From UHGV virus genome UHGV-0175639: 64,000 bases of DNA. One strand, 5' to 3'. Origin of the DNA: a virus. The stretch's first letter is position 1; the number at the start of each line of letters is the position of its first letter. Position numbers and translations under genes: made by a program. Positions 7,463-59,809 of this stretch are shown here, in pieces. The notes beneath the pieces are model-generated. The model ran no database searches, was not told the origin of the DNA, and saw nothing but the letters and a program-made list of their open reading frames with translations.

Positions 7463-7600
7463 GTGTTTTTCTCTTCTTTGCTGTTACATAAGCACTACCA
7501 AGTGCTGGTTTATTTTCACAAATAAGAAAAGGTAGAAAACAATTTATTTAAGGCCATAACTTATGGCCTTTATTTATTCATGCAGAAGGATTTGTAGCGC

Positions 7601-24573: not shown

Positions 24574-25143
24574 TCAAATGAGAGACTTAAGAACATCGCG
24601 CACCTGGCGGAACTGATCTGTTTGCATACCGGTATGGATGGCAGCCACCGCATCAGCCAAATGTTCGTTTTTGTTCACGAGAACATCCTGTCCAGATTGC
24701 TTACGACGCAGCCACGGTGCTTTAGGGTGTTTTTTCGTAGCCCACTGGATAATCTCTTCTTTCGATGTAGTAAGTTTATTGCCGACAAAATGCTTGATTT
24801 CGTTTGGAGTAACCTGGATCAATGGCTTATCCACACACGCAAGTACACCGATACAAATACCGTAAGACGTCTGCGAACGAGAGTTTTGGCTCCCAACCGG
24901 TAGCTCACAAAAAACCATATTTGCCTTATCAATGATTGGCTTCGCAACACGCCATATTTCACTGGCTCGGCGCAGATCGTCACTGTTCACACGAACGGTC
25001 TTTTTGTTACTCCCCGCTTTAGTCTCAACAAGAGTAAGGCCGTGAATCTCAAGTTCGTCCGTCTCAAGGTCTAAAGTGCCCACAGCAAGCCCAAAGTTGC
25101 TCATTGAGGGATCAACACCAACTACGCTGATTTTTTTACTCAT
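24574..25143 (-). CDS. RuvC-like Holliday junction resolvase (putative)
   Basis: VVGVDPS...NFGLAV at N-terminus and EHLADAVAAIH near C-terminus resemble the RuvC fold. Confidence 0.5.
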   Translation of the reverse strand: MSKKISVVGVDPSMSNFGLAVGTLDLETDELEIHGLTLVETKAGSNKKTVRVNSDDLRRASEIWRVAKPIIDKANMVFCELPVGSQNSRSQTSYGICIGVLACVDKPLIQVTPNEIKHFVGNKLTTSKEEIIQWATKKHPKAPWLRRKQSGQDVLVNKNEHLADAVAAIHTGMQTDQFRQVRDVLKSLI

Positions 25144-25152
25144 ATAGTCTCC

Positions 25153-25896
25153 TTACCATGTTCCCCATATAGGGTTTTCCAATAATCTCGCCTCCAACGA
25201 ATTGGCTACTATTGCCGTTTGCAACGTTGGTTGGGGATAGTTTGCAAAGTCTGAATACTCATTTTCCTGCGTGACACGTTTATCTGCGGCATGTTTAACA
25301 CCACTTGCTATGAAATGACGCATGATGCCCAACAGCCTCCGACTGTCTGCACTATCGTTTGCTAAAACATGAGGGAGCTGAAGTTCGATTTCTACCATTT
25401 CTCCATACTTACCAACAAACTGTAGTTTGTCCGCACTGTACTTTTTATCCCTCCTTTGGATAAGGAAACCAGTAAAAGCATCACCTGGCGATGCCAAACT
25501 ATCCACCCGCTTATTGGCAAGTCGAATAAGGTTCGTGAAAGCCATACAGTGATGCGCACCCATTCCCCCAAAGAACCCTTCGCTATTAATGTTAAGATCT
25601 TCAGTTTCATGGGATGCAATAAACCCAGGCCCGACGTTGGGAAGATATCCCCCCTCAACAAAAGGATTAATCAGGATCGGCGCAATACATCCAGGTGGTA
25701 GTGATTTCAAACTTTGCATCAATGGCGTCTCGGATATTAGACCAAGCAACGCGGCGAATTGTACTCCGTCAATATTGTTGCTGCCCCACAGAATACGTGG
25801 AGCCGCACCATTGGAAGTATGCCCATTGATCAGTTTTATCGACTGCATCACTGCAAATACCTGCAAAAACTGCGAGCGACTTAATTTAAACGACAT
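25153..25896 (-). CDS. hypothetical protein, 247 aa
   Basis: ORF only. Confidence 0.5.
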   Translation of the reverse strand: MSFKLSRSQFLQVFAVMQSIKLINGHTSNGAAPRILWGSNNIDGVQFAALLGLISETPLMQSLKSLPPGCIAPILINPFVEGGYLPNVGPGFIASHETEDLNINSEGFFGGMGAHHCMAFTNLIRLANKRVDSLASPGDAFTGFLIQRRDKKYSADKLQFVGKYGEMVEIELQLPHVLANDSADSRRLLGIMRHFIASGVKHAADKRVTQENEYSDFANYPQPTLQTAIVANSLEARLLENPIWGTW

Positions 25897-27802
25897 AGCT
25901 GCGCCCCTCTTTAACTTCCAGCGTAATAGTTTCCCGGAACCATGACTTCATCTCTTTATGGGAGATAATCAGCACAGTACCTCGCTCGCGAGCTTTGGAC
26001 TCCAGAATACCCATGAGGCGTTCAAGACCGGCTGTATCGAGTGCATCGTCAATTTCGTCGCCGATAAACAAATCGATGTTTTTACTCGCCCGGTTGCTAA
26101 CCAGATCCTGCAATGCCAAAGAACACGCAATGCGAACCTTCCGCTTCTCACCACCAGAGAGGGTCTGGAACGACTTACTTGAACCTTTCTTCTGCACACT
26201 AATGTTGAATTTGTCGCGATACTCACCTTTTTTAGTGACATCCATCGTCGACCACTCAGCAGTAATATTCCCGTCAGACAACGTATTGAGATACTCGGCA
26301 GTGCGTGTATTCAGGAAAGGCGTAACAGACGTCAAAATATGAGAACGCACCCCGGCAGGAGAGTAGACCTGACGAGCTTTTTCCAATAGCAACGTTTGTT
26401 CCTGAATAGCCTTCAACTCATCTTTTAAGGACTTGAAGGTAGACTTACTGGATACCAGGTTATCTTCGTGTCTGGCGATAAGAGCAATAAACGGATTAAT
26501 CTCTTTTGATATACGATCGACCTCAGTACGAGCACGAGTCACAAGAGACTCAATAGCAACAACCTCCTTCTCACGATGACGCAAAGATGAGAGTTGTTTC
26601 GTAAGCTCTTCAATCCGGGCAATGATAGCCGTTACATCAGGTGTCGTTTTAACAAGGGCAGACTCAATGCTTAACGCTTTCTCAAGATTCGTTTTGTGTT
26701 TAGCCATTGCCTCTGCAAGTGTCTTCGCCTGACCAATTTCCTGACGTGCTTGTTCAATGAAATTCTCCTTCACCGTTGATAGATCTTCTTCGCAGTAGGC
26801 TTTGCCACAAGTAGGGCATGGTGATCCCACTTTAGTACCAACCTCTTCTGCTTTGGTCTTAAAATTACGCGCGCGGTTCATTGCATCAGCCTGACTATTT
26901 TCTGTAGCTTTGATGCTTGCCCGAATATCAGTTATCGCACCACGAACTTTGAGCAACTTGGCGTCATGTTCTTCTTTTGAGGCTAACTTTTTGCGCTCAC
27001 TTTCGATTGCCTTCTCGGTATCACGGATCTGTTCGGGAAGAGTGCGGATCTCAAGTTCAACTTCCGTTAACTCAACTTCGGCACTGGCCAGCCCAGCCAG
27101 GGCATCGTCATAACGTTTAGAACGCTCTTGCTCCCATGATTCAGAGGAGGCTTTCGCTGACTCAATTTCTGACTGTGTTGCCTCAATGGTCGAGATTGTC
27201 GACTCCAATTTGGTTTTAACCACATCCATACGTGCGGCAGCTGCATTAGCTCGCTCACGAGCAATAGCGTAGGCGCGTGTCAGTCTGTCAACGCCAGCGG
27301 CTTCTTCTACGATGGTTTTGAGGTTTTTGTCGGACATTCCAGGTAAATCTGGCATAGCTTCTTGGCTCGCATAGATGGAAGCCATGAAAACCTCTTTAGA
27401 TGCACCGATCAGACGCTCGACGAACTCTTGCGTCAGCGCATCTTTGCCTTTCGTCATATCGCCGTCTTCACCACGAACGATAAGCCGATTTTTGAACTCT
27501 TTGTGTTTACGGTGACGAATGATCGCATATCTCTTGCCTTCATCCTCGATGGTTACTGCAACACGACAGTTCTTTTCATGGTCGGTAGACAACACATCGT
27601 CACCCTTCACACCATGAGCTGTTTCGCCATAAAGACACCACATCAGGCTATTCATTAGCGTTGACTTTCCAGAGCCATTACTTGATGCGGAACTATCATC
27701 ACTATTAACACCCTGAATGAGCACTAAACCACGCTGATCTAACTCGACCTCCGCGCTGGCGATAGCCATAAAATTCTCAACCTGGAGCTTTAAAAACTTC
27801 AT
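25886..27802 (-). CDS. SbcC/Rad50-like recombination ATPase
   Basis: Walker A GSGKST, long coiled coil with CPTCGK zinc hook, LSGGE signature, Walker B DEIDD. Confidence 0.85.
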   Translation of the reverse strand: MKFLKLQVENFMAIASAEVELDQRGLVLIQGVNSDDSSASSNGSGKSTLMNSLMWCLYGETAHGVKGDDVLSTDHEKNCRVAVTIEDEGKRYAIIRHRKHKEFKNRLIVRGEDGDMTKGKDALTQEFVERLIGASKEVFMASIYASQEAMPDLPGMSDKNLKTIVEEAAGVDRLTRAYAIARERANAAAARMDVVKTKLESTISTIEATQSEIESAKASSESWEQERSKRYDDALAGLASAEVELTEVELEIRTLPEQIRDTEKAIESERKKLASKEEHDAKLLKVRGAITDIRASIKATENSQADAMNRARNFKTKAEEVGTKVGSPCPTCGKAYCEEDLSTVKENFIEQARQEIGQAKTLAEAMAKHKTNLEKALSIESALVKTTPDVTAIIARIEELTKQLSSLRHREKEVVAIESLVTRARTEVDRISKEINPFIALIARHEDNLVSSKSTFKSLKDELKAIQEQTLLLEKARQVYSPAGVRSHILTSVTPFLNTRTAEYLNTLSDGNITAEWSTMDVTKKGEYRDKFNISVQKKGSSKSFQTLSGGEKRKVRIACSLALQDLVSNRASKNIDLFIGDEIDDALDTAGLERLMGILESKARERGTVLIISHKEMKSWFRETITLEVKEGRSYVV

Positions 27803-28031
27803 ATAACACCTTTGATACCGTGTGTTAGCTTTTGACCTTCTTTCAATCTGAACTCCGTATGCGCCGGGAAGGATCTGCGCCTCAATACGCCTTTTCTGGT
27901 TAACCTTCCAAGATAAAACGCTACGGGATTTCCTTGTGGCGGGTAGGGCTTGTGAAACATCACCGTCTGGCCTCGTTCAAGTCTTTTCATCGTGATGGCA
28001 AAGTCTCGAAAGCTCCCATAACGACTTTGCC

Positions 28032-29147
28032 TCACACAGCCTCCGAACTCTCCGCTTCGGTGAGGATTTCCTGACACAAAATATCCAACTTGCTTAGATC
28101 AAATCCGCCGTCAGTATCGTGGACAATCTTGCAATAAGCAGATACCGACTCTCCCAGGCTATCGATTTTGCTGGTTTCCGTTGTGCTTGCTGTCCCTTCC
28201 ATCATTGATGACTTACGGATGAAGTTGCACACGACACCTTTTGCACCCATTGTTTTGAGGATGTTCTGGTACTTAATGCCTTCTTCATCGTTCTCAATTA
28301 CGGCGCGGAAACGCACGTAGTTGCCGCGAATTTGGTCATCGGCAACATAATCTTCCAGGTTAATGAATTTAGGCGCACTGGTTTCGTAGTGACTGAAACT
28401 GCCGTCCGGGTTTACGATCATGTAACCAGCCAGAGATCCAACATCTCCCCAATTTTGATGGGTCAGCGCACCGACACTGATAACTCCAGGAATGACCTCT
28501 TTATGGTTGTGGTAATGCCCACTAAGCACGAGACGAAAGCCGATATCCTTTAACTCCTGCGCATCGATACCGACGTCAGGCATTGTTGGAATGGCTTTGT
28601 TAATGGATGTATGGATAACAACATCATGATTATCACCTTCTACGCTCTTACGTAATGCTTTCAGATCGCTGATAAGCTCTGCATGATTGTTACGCCAGCT
28701 AATCAGGTGGACAGTCACATCACCAATTTTTATTGAGTGTGGGCGCTTGCCACATACGATTACCACGCCGATAGAACTCAGCGATGCTGCTGCGTTGGCG
28801 CTATATAATGAATCGTTGGTTTCAAGATCGTGATTACCGGCCAGCATTACTACTGTCAGATCAAGCTCGTTGATAATCCACTTGTACGTTTCAGTTACGT
28901 AATGCAAAACAGAAGGGGACACAGTTCCTCGGACGTGAAATGTATCACCGGCAACCAACATGTACTTACAACCGGCCTTCTTCATGGCGATGGCTGCTTC
29001 TTTCGTTGCTTCCAACTGTATTTCAAGTCTGGAGTTAAGCCCCTCAGCGTTCGTCGTGGAGAACGCATCCCATTTGTGGTAGTGGCAGTCAGAAATGACG
29101 CCGTATGGCAAAGTCATGTGTTTTTCCTTTGTGGTTATTTGATACAA
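28032..29147 (-). CDS. SbcD/Mre11-like nuclease
   Basis: Calcineurin-like phosphoesterase motifs (DCHYH, AGDTFH, GNHD). Confidence 0.85.
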   Translation of the reverse strand: MYQITTKEKHMTLPYGVISDCHYHKWDAFSTTNAEGLNSRLEIQLEATKEAAIAMKKAGCKYMLVAGDTFHVRGTVSPSVLHYVTETYKWIINELDLTVVMLAGNHDLETNDSLYSANAAASLSSIGVVIVCGKRPHSIKIGDVTVHLISWRNNHAELISDLKALRKSVEGDNHDVVIHTSINKAIPTMPDVGIDAQELKDIGFRLVLSGHYHNHKEVIPGVISVGALTHQNWGDVGSLAGYMIVNPDGSFSHYETSAPKFINLEDYVADDQIRGNYVRFRAVIENDEEGIKYQNILKTMGAKGVVCNFIRKSSMMEGTASTTETSKIDSLGESVSAYCKIVHDTDGGFDLSKLDILCQEILTEAESSEAV

Positions 29148-29438
29148 ATCTTAAGCTTGCTCGAGAGGTGAGCAACCAACACAGCACGGCACAGAAGAAC
29201 ATCAACAGGCATAGTATTACAAAATAAATAGGTAAGTGAATACCTACCAAAATTGTTGAATGGATTGCTTACAAGGCGGCTAGAGTTTCATTGAAGTGCT
29301 TAGATGTATATGGTAGGCAAAAGTCTCATCGTTACATATGAATGAACTATCTCATGGGTCATGTATCATTTGATATTTTTATTATCAACAATTACCGTAT
29401 AAGAGGAATTTTCCAAATTGAAAAAGGATTGATTATCA

Positions 29439-35230: not shown

Positions 35231-36304
35231 TTACTCTTCTACTGACTCGGTGGGGTTGTCTTTTGCTCTTCGGTCGTCGATTGCCTGCAAAGCCGCAATG
35301 ATTTCAGCCAGTGGCTTCTCCCGATACATCTCGACGATCTGCGATTTGGTGTATTTCTTGTCACCAATTTCAACTCGCCCGCTGGCGTTCTTTGGCAGGT
35401 ATCCTTCTTCCAGCATGTACTCGACGAGCGATTCGATAACGTCGAGGCCACGAGTAGGATCGAAGTAGAATTTCCAGGTGCATTTGCCATACGGTGGTGC
35501 AACTTTGTTTTTGATGCATTCTGCGCCTACGTCCTGGCCGATCTTCTCTTTACCATCCTTCATCACCGATGCACCAAGACGGATACGTACAGAAGCGTAG
35601 AACTTCGGTGAATCTCCACCTGGCGACGTAGTAGGGTCGCCAAACATTACACCGATTTTTGTGCGAACCTGATTCAAGAAGATGATGCAGGCGTTGTATT
35701 TGCGTGCCCACAAAGCCAGAGTAGGGAAGTTCGCACTTGTCGCACGAGCCAGTGCCGTATTGTCGTTCATGTTTAGCTGATCTTTGTCTTTGGCAGTGCC
35801 TTCAGCCATCTTTTCGAACTTCTCGGCTTTGGAGTTCGGAACCATAGACGCAAGTGAGTCAGCCACGATACAGATAGGTGCTGATTCAGGGATAAGCTCT
35901 TCATCACGTACCAATTTAAGTATTGTGCCGATCAACTCTACAGAGTCTTCGAAGGTGTCAGGCTGCTTGTATACCCACTGACCGTCATCCTCATCTGCGT
36001 TCAGGCCATTGGCTACAGCCAGGCCAACGTCAAAACTGTTTTCATGATCGAGGAATACCGCCAGACCATCTTGTTTTTGAGCGGAGATCATCGCTGCTGT
36101 TGCAAGGAACGTTTTCCCTGCACTTGGAGGACCGAATACTTCGACGATACGACCACATGGGAAGCCGCCATCGTAACGACCAGAAATAGCTTTGTTTAAC
36201 GGTGGAAAGCCTGTATCAATCCAATGAGTTACTTTCTGAATTTCGTCGTTGCTACCGATTTTCTTTTTCAGAGCAAGTGCCAGTGCGGATTTTCCTTTTG
36301 CCAT
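35231..36304 (-). CDS. RecA/UvsX-family recombinase
   Basis: GRIVEVFGPPSAGKT Walker A in RecA-like context. Confidence 0.8.
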   Translation of the reverse strand: MAKGKSALALALKKKIGSNDEIQKVTHWIDTGFPPLNKAISGRYDGGFPCGRIVEVFGPPSAGKTFLATAAMISAQKQDGLAVFLDHENSFDVGLAVANGLNADEDDGQWVYKQPDTFEDSVELIGTILKLVRDEELIPESAPICIVADSLASMVPNSKAEKFEKMAEGTAKDKDQLNMNDNTALARATSANFPTLALWARKYNACIIFLNQVRTKIGVMFGDPTTSPGGDSPKFYASVRIRLGASVMKDGKEKIGQDVGAECIKNKVAPPYGKCTWKFYFDPTRGLDVIESLVEYMLEEGYLPKNASGRVEIGDKKYTKSQIVEMYREKPLAEIIAALQAIDDRRAKDNPTESVEE

Positions 36305-49095: not shown

Positions 49096-50358
49096 ATGCC
49101 TTTTTTAATTTTCATTATTATACTACTGCTCACCGTTATTTTTTGGGATTGGGTTGTTTTAAATGGTCAAACTGTTGGAACATTGGCTACAGCATTTGCT
49201 TTTATAGCAACAGCATGGAATGCCTACGAAGCGAGAAAAAGTGCAAAAGCAGCTTTTTCAGCCCTTCAATTAACAACTGAATCATTGTTCGAAATGCGAA
49301 AGAGTGCATTTAAACAATGGTTTGATTCCTTATTAAATCAACATGATGCGTTATGTCTTCTTGCAAAACAAATTATCGATAAACACAAAATTAATTTAAA
49401 CAGCGATGAGTTACATAGACTCTATTACCCATTGGTAAAACAGCATGAGGTAATACAGTATGTGAAGCATATTATTAATATATTTGAGTATGTGGATAGT
49501 TCATTTTATATTGATGGGGAATGTCTCAAGGAAAAAAGAGCGTATGTATCACAATTAATTTTTAAAATCCCACCTCAGATGAAGTTGATCATTGCTATCT
49601 TTGGATTAAAAATCGATTATTGTGAACATATTAATTCGGAAAAACTGTGTTGTTTATTGAATAAATATGATTTTTTCAATGATGAAATATTTTTTGATGA
49701 TGCTTATTCAAATATGCCTTATCTGGATACATTCATAAACCTTAGATTCAATAAAATATTCAAATCTCGAATGATAAATTATTTTGATAATATCATTAAA
49801 AGTTATTATGTTCCATCGGACGTTAAAAGGGACTGGATGTTTCGACGCCCACAGCTCGTACCGTCGGTTCTTATGAATTATAAAACTCCTTGTTCTCCTA
49901 TAATTAATGATTACTTTGAGAAGTTGCCTTTACATGTAAGAAACTACTTTGAGGAACAACTTAAAACCGCGAATGATAGAGTTACTCATTTTGACGTTTA
50001 CATCCCACGCCTTATTGGTTGTTCAATCGTGCAACATTACGAAGATGTGCCTTCCGAAAAAAACAGGTTAAATGACAGGAATGATGTAATAGCTATGGCT
50101 GAAGATTACATCGAGAAAAGAAAATCTAATCAACTAGATTACATACTTGAAGATATATACTTCAAGAGTGACGAAGATATAATCCCAGGCCACCATTTGA
50201 TTGTGGCATTTGATGACTATGAATTTAAATTATCACTCATTAAGATAAATGAGAATAAAGATAGCGATAATCTTTTAAATCGAATTTATACTGAATCCAG
50301 TAGCATGGTTAAAGAATATAAGCGCGAAATATTAAAACTGGGCGACTATGTAAAGTAA
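49096..50358 (+). CDS. membrane-anchored protein, 420 aa, unknown function
   Basis: Two N-terminal TM helices then a long soluble domain; conspicuously AT-rich by eye; own terminator. Confidence 0.6.
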   Translation: MPFLIFIIILLLTVIFWDWVVLNGQTVGTLATAFAFIATAWNAYEARKSAKAAFSALQLTTESLFEMRKSAFKQWFDSLLNQHDALCLLAKQIIDKHKINLNSDELHRLYYPLVKQHEVIQYVKHIINIFEYVDSSFYIDGECLKEKRAYVSQLIFKIPPQMKLIIAIFGLKIDYCEHINSEKLCCLLNKYDFFNDEIFFDDAYSNMPYLDTFINLRFNKIFKSRMINYFDNIIKSYYVPSDVKRDWMFRRPQLVPSVLMNYKTPCSPIINDYFEKLPLHVRNYFEEQLKTANDRVTHFDVYIPRLIGCSIVQHYEDVPSEKNRLNDRNDVIAMAEDYIEKRKSNQLDYILEDIYFKSDEDIIPGHHLIVAFDDYEFKLSLIKINENKDSDNLLNRIYTESSSMVKEYKREILKLGDYVK

Positions 50359-50549: not shown

Positions 50550-50636
50550 CTGGCGGAGAGTAATGGAATCGAACCATCATCGTTTGCACAATGGAACGGT
50601 TTTCAAGACCGCTTGAGCACCATGCTCCCTACTCTC
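50550..50636 (-). tRNA. tRNA-Ser (anticodon UGA), long variable arm, CCA encoded
   Basis: Manual fold: acceptor GGAGAGU/ACUCUCC, anticodon loop CUUGAAA, T-loop GGTTCGATTCC. Confidence 0.65.
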
Positions 50637-50827
50637 CAGCTATTGTGATGGTCGGTACTGAACTCCGACACAGGGTTGTAGCAAGCCCCGCAAAGCGCGC
50701 ACTACTGTAGTTGCGGCACATCAGCCTGTGCATTCATCACAACGGTAAGAGCACTGGTCTGACTCTATCGATTTACGGCCTTGTGGGTCAGTATCGCCGA
50801 TTCGCCCAATGCTCTTACCTGTTGTGT

Positions 50828-50903
50828 TGGTGCCGGTTAACGGACTTGAACCGCTGGCCATTCGCTTACAAAGCGACTGCTCTACCAACTGAGCTAAACC
50901 GGC
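50828..50903 (-). tRNA. tRNA-Thr (anticodon UGU), CCA encoded
   Basis: Manual fold: acceptor GCCGGUU/AACCGGC, D-arm AGCTCAGTTGGTAGAGC, anticodon loop UUUGUAA. Confidence 0.6.
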
Positions 50904-50907
50904 AATT

Positions 50908-50994
50908 TGGTGGGGAGTGATGGAGTCGAACCACCCGAGTCGCCATGACAGTAGATTTACAGTCTACACCGCTACCTCTACGGACTAACTCCCC
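50908..50994 (-). tRNA. tRNA-Tyr (anticodon GUA), long variable arm, CCA encoded
   Basis: Manual fold: acceptor GGGGAGU/ACUCCCC, anticodon stem-loop GUAGA-CUGUAAA-UCUAC. Confidence 0.6.
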
Positions 50995-50999
50995 TAAAT

Positions 51000-51074
51000 T
51001 GGCGATGGTGGGTGGATTCGAACCACCGACCAGTTGGTTAACAGCCAACTGCTCTACCGCTGAGCTACACCATC
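51000..51074 (-). tRNA. tRNA-Asn (anticodon GUU), CCA encoded
   Basis: Manual fold: acceptor GAUGGUG/CACCAUC, anticodon stem-loop GUUGG-CUGUUAA-CCAAC, T-loop GGTTCGAATCC. Confidence 0.65.
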
Positions 51075-52292: not shown

Positions 52293-52504
52293 TTTAACAC
52301 TCCTGATTCTACTAATTGCTGTAGCAATACTTTCCCTTTATCAGTTAACTGGTAGTTGGCCGAACACCACGTTTCAGAAACGTTTGCAACCAACCCTAAA
52401 CGCTCTAACTTAGCTCGCGTTTTAGGCTTCCAGTACTCAGGGAACTCCGGCCACTTACTGATTTCATGAAGCGTTTCCTTCTCCCGTTTACTTAATACGA
52501 TCAT
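52289..52504 (-). CDS. hypothetical protein, 71 aa
   Basis: ORF coupled to neighbours. Confidence 0.45.
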   Translation of the reverse strand: MIVLSKREKETLHEISKWPEFPEYWKPKTRAKLERLGLVANVSETWCSANYQLTDKGKVLLQQLVESGVLK

Positions 52505-52667
52505 CCTTAATCTCCTTCACGGTGTTGGTTATTTCTACAATGCGATAAATACGACCGCGTCTTTCTATAACACCGCTTTTAATGTAGTCATTGATGCAAC
52601 TGGACATCACCACAATACCTATGAAAAAACCAACTGCTAAAAATGCAATCATCCAACCGAGCATCAT
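52488..52667 (-). CDS. small membrane protein, 59 aa
   Basis: MMLGWMIAFLAVGFFIGIVV...; start overlaps the ligase stop. Confidence 0.35.
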   Translation of the reverse strand: MMLGWMIAFLAVGFFIGIVVMSSCINDYIKSGVIERRGRIYRIVEITNTVKEIKDDRIK

Positions 52668-53985
52668 TCTTTATCTCCGATTCGATCTTCTGTATCGCGT
52701 AAGCAACGCGGCCATTTCAGTCGTGGGTGGCGTAAGCTGCCATCCGGCGTTTTCTCGTGACAATGAACCTCGACAATACGACCACGGTACTTCTCTTTGT
52801 TGTTCCAGATCTCGTCCAGATATTTATGCTTAATGCCGCTCGCACGAACAATCACACCGTTTTCAAGGCGAATAACAATTTTTCCAAGCGTGTTGGCAAA
52901 ACCAGAGTCCGGATCGCCCGGCTCAAAGTCGATAATTTCACCATCTTCTGAATCTTCGTCTTTTAACTTCCACCAGCTGCGGGTACGTTTAAACTCGTAA
53001 ACAGAGTTCGGATCTTTGCCCATCTCCCCTTCTTCGTTATCGTCCAGGCGTTTCATGAAGCGTTCGATGAAGTCTTCGTGGCTATGGATGATATAGAACG
53101 GATGCAGGTGAATGTCTTGTGTGTAGCCTTCACTGCGATCGTTTTTGAACAACGCCACCAGCATAGCCAGGCGCTCTTTCAGCTTCATACCTGTCTTTGC
53201 ATACTCTTTGGATTTAGCCTGTGCTCGCCATTCCGGTAGGAAGAAGTCGAAAATATGATAAATAGCGCCAATTGCCTGCACGTTCTTTTTGCGCAATGCA
53301 GATACGGACTGGTTAAATGAACCGGCTGTGCCTTCACCATCGAAGAAGATGTGTTTGTGGCCTGAAAGTTTGCCTAATTCGAGCATGGCTGGCTTTAGGT
53401 GATCGAGAGACGTGATTGGATTACCAGTACGAGAAAGGAAGTTAACCTCTTCTTCGTCAACAATAACCTCGCAAATTACTCGCAAACCATCGAGCTTAAG
53501 GCTGCCAATCATCGGCCATTTTGCTTTAGGATTTGGCTTGAAGGGGTATTTGTCGCCTTTTCTTTATACGGTGACGCCAGCTGCACCTCGAATTTCGGAA
53601 TGGGATTTTCAAAAACCTTGTTGCATAGGCTAATCCCAACACCCGCTTTCGGGTCTTTTAAGAGGAAACGACGGAACACGTCCTGCCCATCGGCGCACAT
53701 TGACGCCACGATAGACTCAACAGCAGCTATTGCTGCGTTCCCCGTTAGCTCGCGAGAGGCCAGCTTATTCAGTACATCAATGGCTTTTTCGTCACTTGGG
53801 ATGGACTCACTAAGCGGCTCTGCCACTTTGTATTTCTTTACCCCAAAACGGATGAAAGGGTTGAGCATCAATGAAACCATGCTTTGCTCGAAGTCATCCA
53901 TGTTGGCCAATGCCTCTTTTTTTGCATTGGTTCCCATAGCTTTCATTTCGTCCAGCTTATGCTTAAGTGCGATCAACTTTTTCAT
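52664..53985 (-). pseudogene. ATP-dependent DNA ligase (T4-like), reading frame broken by a 1-nt shift in an A4 run
   Basis: N-terminal ORF aligns to T4 ligase up to YKEK; the KxDGxR adenylation motif (SLKLDGLR) lies in the next ORF in the -1 frame; shift maps to the T4 run at 53558-53561 (plus strand). Confidence 0.7.
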
Positions 53986-54452
53986 TGTTGTTTTACCTCC
54001 ATATGTTGATCGATTTGCTCATGTGTTTCTTTTGTTGTTTCTTCAAGCAACGCCGCATACACGTCAGTGATCGCTGTTTGTGATGTGGTGCTCTTCTTAA
54101 CCATGCTATTAATCGTTACACTGTCACGTTTTCGTTTTAAAGTTCTGGCTTGTTTATTCCGTTCTTCAACCTCCTTAATGAGCGCGGTCATATCTTCGAA
54201 ATACAGAGATTCTCCTTTACGAATCTCTTCAACCATCATTTTTAACGCCTTGCATTTGCCTGCTTTGATAGCGGTTGCGCACGACTGGAATGAAGTTCGA
54301 GGAAGACGGTTTTCTTTGAAGGCAAGAATGGTGTGCTGGCAAACGGAGTAGCTGCAATATGCCGACTCACCGTTTATCTTTACTTCCTCACAACGAAGTG
54401 AATAACCGTTATTTCCTGAAATAGAAGGGATTTTTGACAAATCAGCTTTCAC
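53982..54452 (-). CDS. hypothetical Cys-rich protein, 156 aa
   Basis: ORF only. Confidence 0.5.
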   Translation of the reverse strand: MKADLSKIPSISGNNGYSLRCEEVKINGESAYCSYSVCQHTILAFKENRLPRTSFQSCATAIKAGKCKALKMMVEEIRKGESLYFEDMTALIKEVEERNKQARTLKRKRDSVTINSMVKKSTTSQTAITDVYAALLEETTKETHEQIDQHMEVKQQ

Positions 54453-58468: not shown

Positions 58469-59809
58469 TTAGGTAACGTCTAAGATTCGCTCAATGAAGC
58501 GCATTTGTTCGAGGTTTTGTTTAACGCGAATGCTGATCCCTCCCTGCTGGTTACGTGAACCAGCAAAGTAGAGACGAGCCTCTCCTTTCGCTTCTTCTTC
58601 TTCGGTTTTGTTGATCGTTATTACCAGGTCAGCAATACGTACTTTTTCGAAGTTGTCGGCAGCCTGCATCATTGTGGCATCTTCTGTCGCGCCACCTTCA
58701 CGGTTTGTCTGCGATGCCGTAATCCCAGCAACGTTATGCTTGTCATAAAGAGCACGTAAATCGGTGTAGATACTACGAATGTTGGCGCGATCATCACGAA
58801 GGTCATAACTGGCACGCATCAAATCTGCGTAGTCGACAACAACCATGTCAGGCACCATGCCGTTGGCTTTCATGCTGTTAAGCATACGGTCCAGATCTGC
58901 CGGTGACATACTTCCTGACGGACGCTCAACCACCCACAAACTACCAATCCCCTTCGTGGCTCCCAACTCTGCCAACTTACGATGAACCTCATCGCGCCGT
59001 TCCACCAGCTTGGACATTTCTGTCTCCGACAATCTTGCATCAAAACGGTCGGATAAAATGGTGGTGTGAACCTCCAGCGAGAGATACAGAACATTGTAGC
59101 CAGCAAGCGTTGCGTTTATGGAAAACTCACCCATTGCGGTCGATTTGCCGGATTTAGCGAACCCCATGAAGAGCACCATTTCACGCTTCGCCCAGCCTTT
59201 TTGGTACAGCAACCTATCGAGCAGAGGGAGTCCAGTTGTAATGCTGTTTGGCACATACTCCTCTGAAGCCTCATATTCACGCGCTTTCAATCGCTCACTT
59301 GCGGAGGTGTAGTAGTCATAGATTCCGGTCGCTTCGTTCGAGCCTATCTGCTGAACCTTGGCCATGATTGCCATCGCCCCCTGAAAGTCGCCCTTCTCTT
59401 TCAGTTCAGCAGCTTTAATCAGAGCATCATCAAACGCTACACTTTTTGCGAATGTGGATACCTGGTCAACCATGTACGTGGTATCAGACAATTTTTCTGC
59501 AAGGATGCGCTTAAACGCAGCAACAACATCCGGGAAGAGTTCCTCACGGATGGTCTTATCGCGTTTCGCGCGCTTAAGCATATCCAGAATCGCAGATGAA
59601 GAAGGCGCGCTCTTGTACATACGGTAATAGCCCGAAACCATATTAACCAATATGGCATTGGCCGCATTGGCAAATTGGCTAGGCACAACCAGATCTCCCG
59701 CACGAGTAAGAAACTCGTGATCACGACAAAAATATGCCGTCAGTCTGTTCTGGAAATCTTCATCAAACTCTTCGGACAGCCCGCGTCCTGTATGGCAAAG
59801 TTCGGTCAT
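58469..59809 (-). CDS. DnaB-like replicative helicase
   Basis: RecA-fold Walker A GFAKSGKST and Walker B VVVDYADL. Confidence 0.8.
   Translation of the reverse strand: MTELCHTGRGLSEEFDEDFQNRLTAYFCRDHEFLTRAGDLVVPSQFANAANAILVNMVSGYYRMYKSAPSSSAILDMLKRAKRDKTIREELFPDVVAAFKRILAEKLSDTTYMVDQVSTFAKSVAFDDALIKAAELKEKGDFQGAMAIMAKVQQIGSNEATGIYDYYTSASERLKAREYEASEEYVPNSITTGLPLLDRLLYQKGWAKREMVLFMGFAKSGKSTAMGEFSINATLAGYNVLYLSLEVHTTILSDRFDARLSETEMSKLVERRDEVHRKLAELGATKGIGSLWVVERPSGSMSPADLDRMLNSMKANGMVPDMVVVDYADLMRASYDLRDDRANIRSIYTDLRALYDKHNVAGITASQTNREGGATEDATMMQAADNFEKVRIADLVITINKTEEEEAKGEARLYFAGSRNQQGGISIRVKQNLEQMRFIERILDVT

Follow-up and report, generated by a model that had tools for sequence, protein, structure and literature searches.

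A single missing adenine interrupts a predicted T4-type DNA ligase gene in an SSU5-like phage-plasmid

Introduction

Two overlapping open reading frames (ORFs) on the minus strand of virus genome UHGV-0175639 each resemble a different part of an ATP-dependent DNA ligase. Are they two genes or two pieces of one, and, if one, is the enzyme still encoded? The locus lies in the 64,000-nt stretch analysed here (hereafter the window). A first-pass annotation made from the letters alone had proposed that a T4-type ATP-dependent ligase is broken there by a one-nucleotide shift in a run of adenines, and had offered three readings of the break: a sequencing error, a recent inactivation, or a slippery site. 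We compared the locus with ligases of known structure, with related phages and plasmids, and with other assemblies that contain it, and we weigh these readings below together with a further one, a functional split ligase.

Results

The coordinates of the locus are collected in Table 1. The 282-aa downstream ORF is listed from 53512 because this is the first ATG of its frame; the frame itself is open back to 53563, and the two frames overlap at 53563..53509. The only suitable A4 run in this overlap, in the context TAT-AAA-GAA-AAG-GCG, is at 53558-53561, and one A added there gives a continuous 440-aa ORF, in which ...YKEK followed by ATNTPSSQILKQNGR and a stop becomes ...YKEKGDKYPFKPNPKAKWPMIGSLKLDGLR... 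The gene is 1322 nt long in the window vs. 1323 nt in relatives, with a single gap at the A run. The first-pass annotation had placed the N-terminal part and the adenylation motif in different frames and had predicted that an extra A within 53556-53562 would restore a continuous protein; both statements are borne out.

Table 1. Features of the interrupted ligase locus and its immediate neighbours (positions in the window)
Feature	Position	Strand	Description
Upstream ORF	53985..53509	minus	158 aa; original ligase frame
Downstream ORF	53512..52664	minus	282 aa; carries KLDGLR adenylation motif
Ligase codons 1-143	53557..53985	minus	N-terminal helical DNA-binding domain and first nucleotidyltransferase strand (QLASPYKEK)
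A4 run, one A missing	53558..53561	minus	sole gap column vs. Cyrano, two CMS-2020a records, SSU5 and pJN2-26
Out-of-frame tail	53509..53556	minus	15 codons (ATNTPSSQILKQNGR); ends at TGA 53511..53509
Ligase codons 144-440	52664..53563	minus	-1 frame relative to start; rest of nucleotidyltransferase domain and OB domain
ATGA, upstream stop and first ATG of downstream frame	53509..53512	minus	4-nt overlap of the two ORFs
aplA orthologue	52488..52667	minus	59 aa; start overlaps ligase stop (ATGA)
Conserved hypothetical gene	53982..54452	minus	156 aa; stop overlaps ligase start

The downstream ORF matches PF01068 with E = 6.4e-13 (48-49 bits against a gathering cut-off of 26.2); motif I, K-L-D-G-L-R, occupies 53497..53480 on the minus strand and starts six residues past the first Met of this ORF, and its Lys, Lys164 of the repaired protein, is the predicted catalytic residue. 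The repaired protein aligns through the junction, in keeping with the ligase assignment of the first-pass annotation: residues 28-427 align with ligase 6RAU (E = 1.3e-26), and the alignment with T4 ligase 6DT1 (E = 6.6e-25) is likewise unbroken there. In the alignment to 6RAU, motifs I, III, IIIa, IV, V and VI can be made out in collinear order; FFDGEG, HIFDFF, EGEMGKDP and WWKLKD are the counterparts of 6RAU motifs III, IIIa, IV and V of the nucleotidyltransferase domain, and SLRHPRLK is the counterpart of motif VI of the OB domain. The 143-aa N-terminal piece on its own is also recognizable: its residues 11-143 match residues 26-164 of the 6DT1 chain (E = 4.7e-9), with LASPYKEK of the window aligned with LASSYDEK of T4, and it matches the isolated T4 DNA-binding-domain fragment 5WFY (E = 6.2e-7). 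These two matches place the break just past the DNA-binding domain, on the first nucleotidyltransferase strand.

The structure-matched alignments exclude chance resemblance, and the two ORFs are two frames of one gene, predicted to specify a three-domain T4-type ATP-dependent DNA ligase (DNA-binding, nucleotidyltransferase and OB domains). The three-domain architecture, the N-terminal helical domain and the motifs are shared with T4 DNA ligase (6DT1; 5WFY) and with 6RAR/6RAS/6RAU, the full-length alignments having E values from 1e-26 to 7e-25. The window protein is nonetheless only a distant homologue of T4 ligase, and its coding sequence is interrupted: the ligase domains do not share a single uninterrupted frame, which breaks after codon 143. 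The locus is a ligase gene by descent that, as sequenced, does not encode the full-length enzyme.

The window itself is part of an SSU5-like phage-plasmid of E. coli, a group that has been described (PMC7969092). Its nucleotide sequence is collinear with SSU5, pLF82 and related plasmids, and the similarity extends to the replication module and the plasmid replication initiator; the genes that it shares in order with pLF82 and pA98_p4 include dnaE, a DnaB-like helicase gene, primase, RNase H, nrdAB, thyA, an integrase gene and the tRNA cluster. Long blocks are 94.6-99.8% identical to pLF82 and to plasmid CP142588.1, and shorter divergent segments are 84-89% identical to pLF82; the blocks aligned with these two together span ~50 kb of the window. 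Over the ligase region, identity is 98-99% to Escherichia phages Cyrano and CMS-2020a, 79.8% to Salmonella phage SSU5 and 76% to Klebsiella phage pJN2-26, and all 255 matching places in complete E. coli genomes are on plasmids, of ~110 kb.

The immediate surroundings of the ligase are conserved as well. The ligases of SSU5 (SSU5_044, YP_006906676.1), pLF82/Cyrano (CYRAN_36) and pA98_p4 (WRX43478.1) are the same gene as that of the window, in a shared syntenic block that runs from primase through two hypothetical genes, ligase and aplA to small ORFs and tRNAs; once repaired, the window protein has 99.3% identity with its Cyrano counterpart and 91.4% with that of SSU5. The SSU5, Cyrano and pA98_p4 ligases are single 440-aa ORFs, whereas the window lacks one A at codons 142-143. 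The overlap with the stop of the 156-aa gene places the ligase in a tightly packed replication-gene operon. The orthologue of the 59-aa gene on the other side is called “after-plasmid-ligase protein” AplA in recent RefSeq records, and the gene has no match in NCBIfam release 20.0 or Pfam; scans of the small ORFs near the ligase against NCBIfam, Pfam and PADLOC gave no matches.

Gene content varies among the relatives at other places in the window. An AT-rich orphan ORF of 420 aa (49096-50358, plus strand), whose product has a hydrophobic N-terminus, occupies a variable slot that extends from the glutaredoxin/integrase genes to the tRNA cluster; the same slot holds an AbiGi-family gene and a hypothetical gene in CP142588.1 and a Gp49-family gene in pLF82. 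The 420-aa ORF has no match in NCBIfam, Pfam or PADLOC scans, and the slot is a possible hotspot for cargo or defence genes. The tRNA cluster that follows, at 50551-51074 on the minus strand, consists of four genes (Ser-TGA, Thr-TGT, Tyr-GTA and Asn-GTT); the Cyrano annotation has Asn, Thr and Ser tRNAs in the stretch shown, and the alignment with CP142588.1 turns gappy within the tRNA-Thr gene (50857-50878), which suggests that tRNA genes have been replaced between relatives. At ~36109-36113, ~1.27 kb of pLF82 (L064 5193-6463) is absent from the window; the extra sequence lies inside a pLF82 gene annotated “LAGLIDADG family homing endonuclease” (2340 nt, vs. 1074 nt for the CP142588.1 counterpart), and the difference is one of presence or absence of an intein or homing-endonuclease insertion.

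The break is absent from every relative that we compared. Ligase genes of 1323 nt are annotated in Cyrano, SSU5 and pJN2-26, and the same intact ORF is present in both CMS-2020a records; the nucleotide alignment of the window with these five is free of gaps except for one column, at the A run. The junction codons read GAA-AAA-GGC, GAA-AAG-GGC in one CMS-2020a record, or GAG-AAA-GGC in SSU5, all of which specify Glu-Lys-Gly. The out-of-frame tail ATNTPSSQILKQNGR has no counterpart in any relative, and the cluster members that span the region all read ...YKEKGDKYPFKPNPKAKWPMIGSLKLDG. An 81-nt query across the junction matched 202 E. coli genome records and 183 PLSDB plasmids, in every case at ≤98.8% identity over an 82-nt span, and the A4 allele found an exact match in none of them (0/202 and 0/183). 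With a pattern that accepts either A4 or A5, we retrieved 48 contigs from IMG/VR (33) and the JGI metagenomes (15); all have AAAAA, and none has A4.

The first-pass annotation had called for a comparison with orthologues, and had counted it against its own reading if orthologues were divided at this very position and each half were conserved in its own right. The orthologues are single 440-aa ORFs, all in one frame, and every full-length copy captured (39/39) is an intact 440-codon ORF. Shorter cluster members (345, 313, 195 and 172 aa) read through the junction in one frame and end elsewhere. Between the repaired gene and its relatives dN/dS is 0.02-0.08, with similar values upstream and downstream of the break; both halves are under strong purifying selection in one frame.

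Among the records without a “DNA ligase” label, two (H65 and H137), called “hypothetical”, have an intact gene, and only CP059946.1 is broken. This turkey E. coli plasmid carries a separate 1-nt insertion at ligase nt ~1175 (GAG to GAGG) that breaks the ligase; its record lists just 87 features and may be an error-rich assembly. Family ligases are thus broken at places other than the junction, by the insertion in CP059946.1 and in the 345-aa and 172-aa forms, and these truncations, as they stand in the database records, would point to occasional knockouts in the family.

The closest plasmid, CP142588.1, is a 99.9% match, and the missing A is its sole difference from the window across the ligase gene. 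Such near-identity indicates a very recent event with no further decay, and it also fits an error. We found the A4 allele in four assemblies: the SPAdes-style contig NODE_23_length_70575_cov_16.49 of ERZ1023947, which an exact-protein look-up identified, with identical coordinates, as the source of the window; a MEGAHIT-style k141 contig; a scaffold of SAMN07449018; and a Logan contig of SRR5899002. Exact-protein look-ups placed the frameshift products in no contigs beyond these four. Compared over 6.5-21 kb, the Logan contig equals the window, and in the other two all differences from the window fall within positions 58651-58724. With the differences limited to this one 75-bp contig-breaking patch, the four are probably re-assemblies of one sample and not independent; their agreement rules out an assembler artefact and leaves read-level error.

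The patch, in the DnaB-like helicase gene (minus strand), shows four clustered transversions relative to CP142588.1, pLF82 and a sister assembly (L010), each to the complementary base and all four non-synonymous (GGASEVATMMHAADNIEKV to GGATEDATMMQAADNFEKV); L010 has two further private transversions there, and the MEGAHIT and Logan contigs end there. It looks like an assembly-graph bubble, from either a strain mix in the sample or local read errors.

We also surveyed indels between the window and CP142588.1 and pLF82 over ~50 kb of alignment, leaving out the IS/repeat region. The ligase indel is the only one inside a conserved coding sequence; the other isolated 1-nt indels, at window positions 7509, 13417, 14287, 19920, 29140, 46890, 48648 and 51092, are intergenic. 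Random homopolymer errors would be expected mostly in coding sequence, and this distribution suggests that the assembly is otherwise good. In the repeat region, window positions 24875-29155 match two CP142588.1 copies that adjoin its IS91-family transposase genes; a 15-bp tandem-duplication difference lies at ~25290, and many homopolymers in the CP142588.1 copies are 1 nt shorter than in the window, a pattern suggestive of errors in the repeats of this record.

Discussion

The locus is a broken copy of a ligase gene that is well known from phage-plasmids, and the break is private to a single metagenomic lineage. We consider it likely, from the comparison of sequences, that the break is a private and very recent inactivating deletion—an ordinary knockout that has made the gene a nascent pseudogene. 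One A would have been lost from the A5 run (codons Glu142-Lys143) in one lineage, most plausibly by replication slippage; translation would stop 15 codons past the shift, after the DNA-binding domain; the catalytic core would be stranded in the -1 frame without a ribosome-binding site of its own; and the loss would presumably be tolerated, with the host ligase sealing nicks during plasmid-state replication. The comparisons themselves show the missing A, its restriction to this lineage, its recency, and orthologues that are intact and under purifying selection; what we infer is that base calling did not create the deletion, that it arose by slippage, and that the host ligase makes it tolerable.

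The strongest competitor is an error: the true molecule would encode an intact ligase with A5 at the run, and base calling or assembly would have dropped one A. Several observations fit such an error: the site is a homopolymer; the A4 allele is unique among >430 related sequences; there is no secondary decay, CP142588.1 being identical save for one base; coverage is modest, ~16x (cov_16.49 in the contig name); the same contig set holds the 75-bp patch at 58651-58724, with its questionable cluster of transversions, a sign that the reads or the assembly have flaws; and the four assemblies that agree on A4 probably share the same reads. However, four different assemblers made the same A4 call and yet disagreed at the truly ambiguous patch, and the other conserved coding sequences in ~50 kb are free of indels, unlike the repeat region of CP142588.1 or the CP059946.1 plasmid. 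A run of four or five adenines is also short for systematic indel error in short reads, the type of read to which we assign the window from its contig naming and coverage tag only. We therefore regard an error as unlikely, though it deserves to be taken seriously.

Even if the deletion is real, ligase activity could in principle be kept, through slippage of tRNA-Lys at A_AAG or through fragments acting in trans, but we consider this very improbable. In one version, the DNA-binding fragment would cooperate, as a separate subunit, with a catalytic fragment whose translation restarts at the ATGA. The break does lie near the point where the DNA-binding domain gives way to the nucleotidyltransferase domain, and a stop/ATG overlap of this kind can permit termination-reinitiation. 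However, we found no orthologues divided there; the ATGA is a by-product of a conserved in-frame Met-Ile (ATG-ATT/C/A), with the same ATGAT in relatives, rather than a coupling signal; no Shine-Dalgarno-like sequence is readable before it; and the catalytic fragment would lack ~20 nucleotidyltransferase residues, including the first strand, and would start only 5 residues before the catalytic Lys. Such a division of labour is accordingly a faint prospect.

Least probable of all is a programmed or “saviour” -1 ribosomal frameshift at A_AAG (GA-AAA-G) that restores the full-length ligase. The shift needed is indeed -1, A_AAG, which in E. coli shifts more readily than any other tetramer (PMC4066793), is present at the site, and slippage of tRNA-Lys from AAG to AAA would yield exactly the ancestral ...YKEKGDKY...; but without a stimulator such tetramers shift at ~0.15% against a background of 0.11% in E. 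coli, and the shift peaks at 5.6% even with a strong pseudoknot (PMC4066793). None of the three marks of programmed -1 frameshifting—a slippery heptamer or stimulated tetramer, a stimulatory structure or upstream SD-like element, and a conserved two-frame site—was found: the X_XXY_YYZ heptamer is absent and A_GAA_AAG holds the bare tetramer only; the 106 nt that begin at the site have a minimum free energy of -19.7 kcal/mol vs. a shuffled mean of -19.8 kcal/mol (z = 0.02); and the orthologues are in one frame, with a run that varies synonymously (GAG-AAA, GAA-AAG), the opposite of a conserved recoding site. The -1 sites of dnaX and the IS3 family (A_AAA_AAG, or A_AAG with a stimulator) share A_AAG and the -1 direction with the window, but they differ from it in their heptamer, hairpin or pseudoknot and conservation, and the orthologues of the window ligase are unframeshifted. 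We rejected programmed frameshifting on the folding result, since the sequence downstream of the run folds no better than shuffled controls, and the slippery-site option of the first-pass annotation falls with it; recoding is effectively excluded. A4 is, moreover, far too short for transcriptional slippage. Even taken jointly, recoding and a split ligase carry only a very small probability.

Returning to a recent private deletion as the likely explanation, we suggest that the two ORFs be annotated as one frameshifted ligase pseudogene, to be corrected if the run proves to be A5, and not as two genes or a case of recoding; beyond annotation hygiene the importance of the finding is small. If the deletion is real, it adds an example of SSU5-like phage-plasmids losing their phage-encoded ligase, for a time at least, while they persist as plasmids; such a loss would fit cover by host LigA, with strong purifying selection still acting on the gene across the family.
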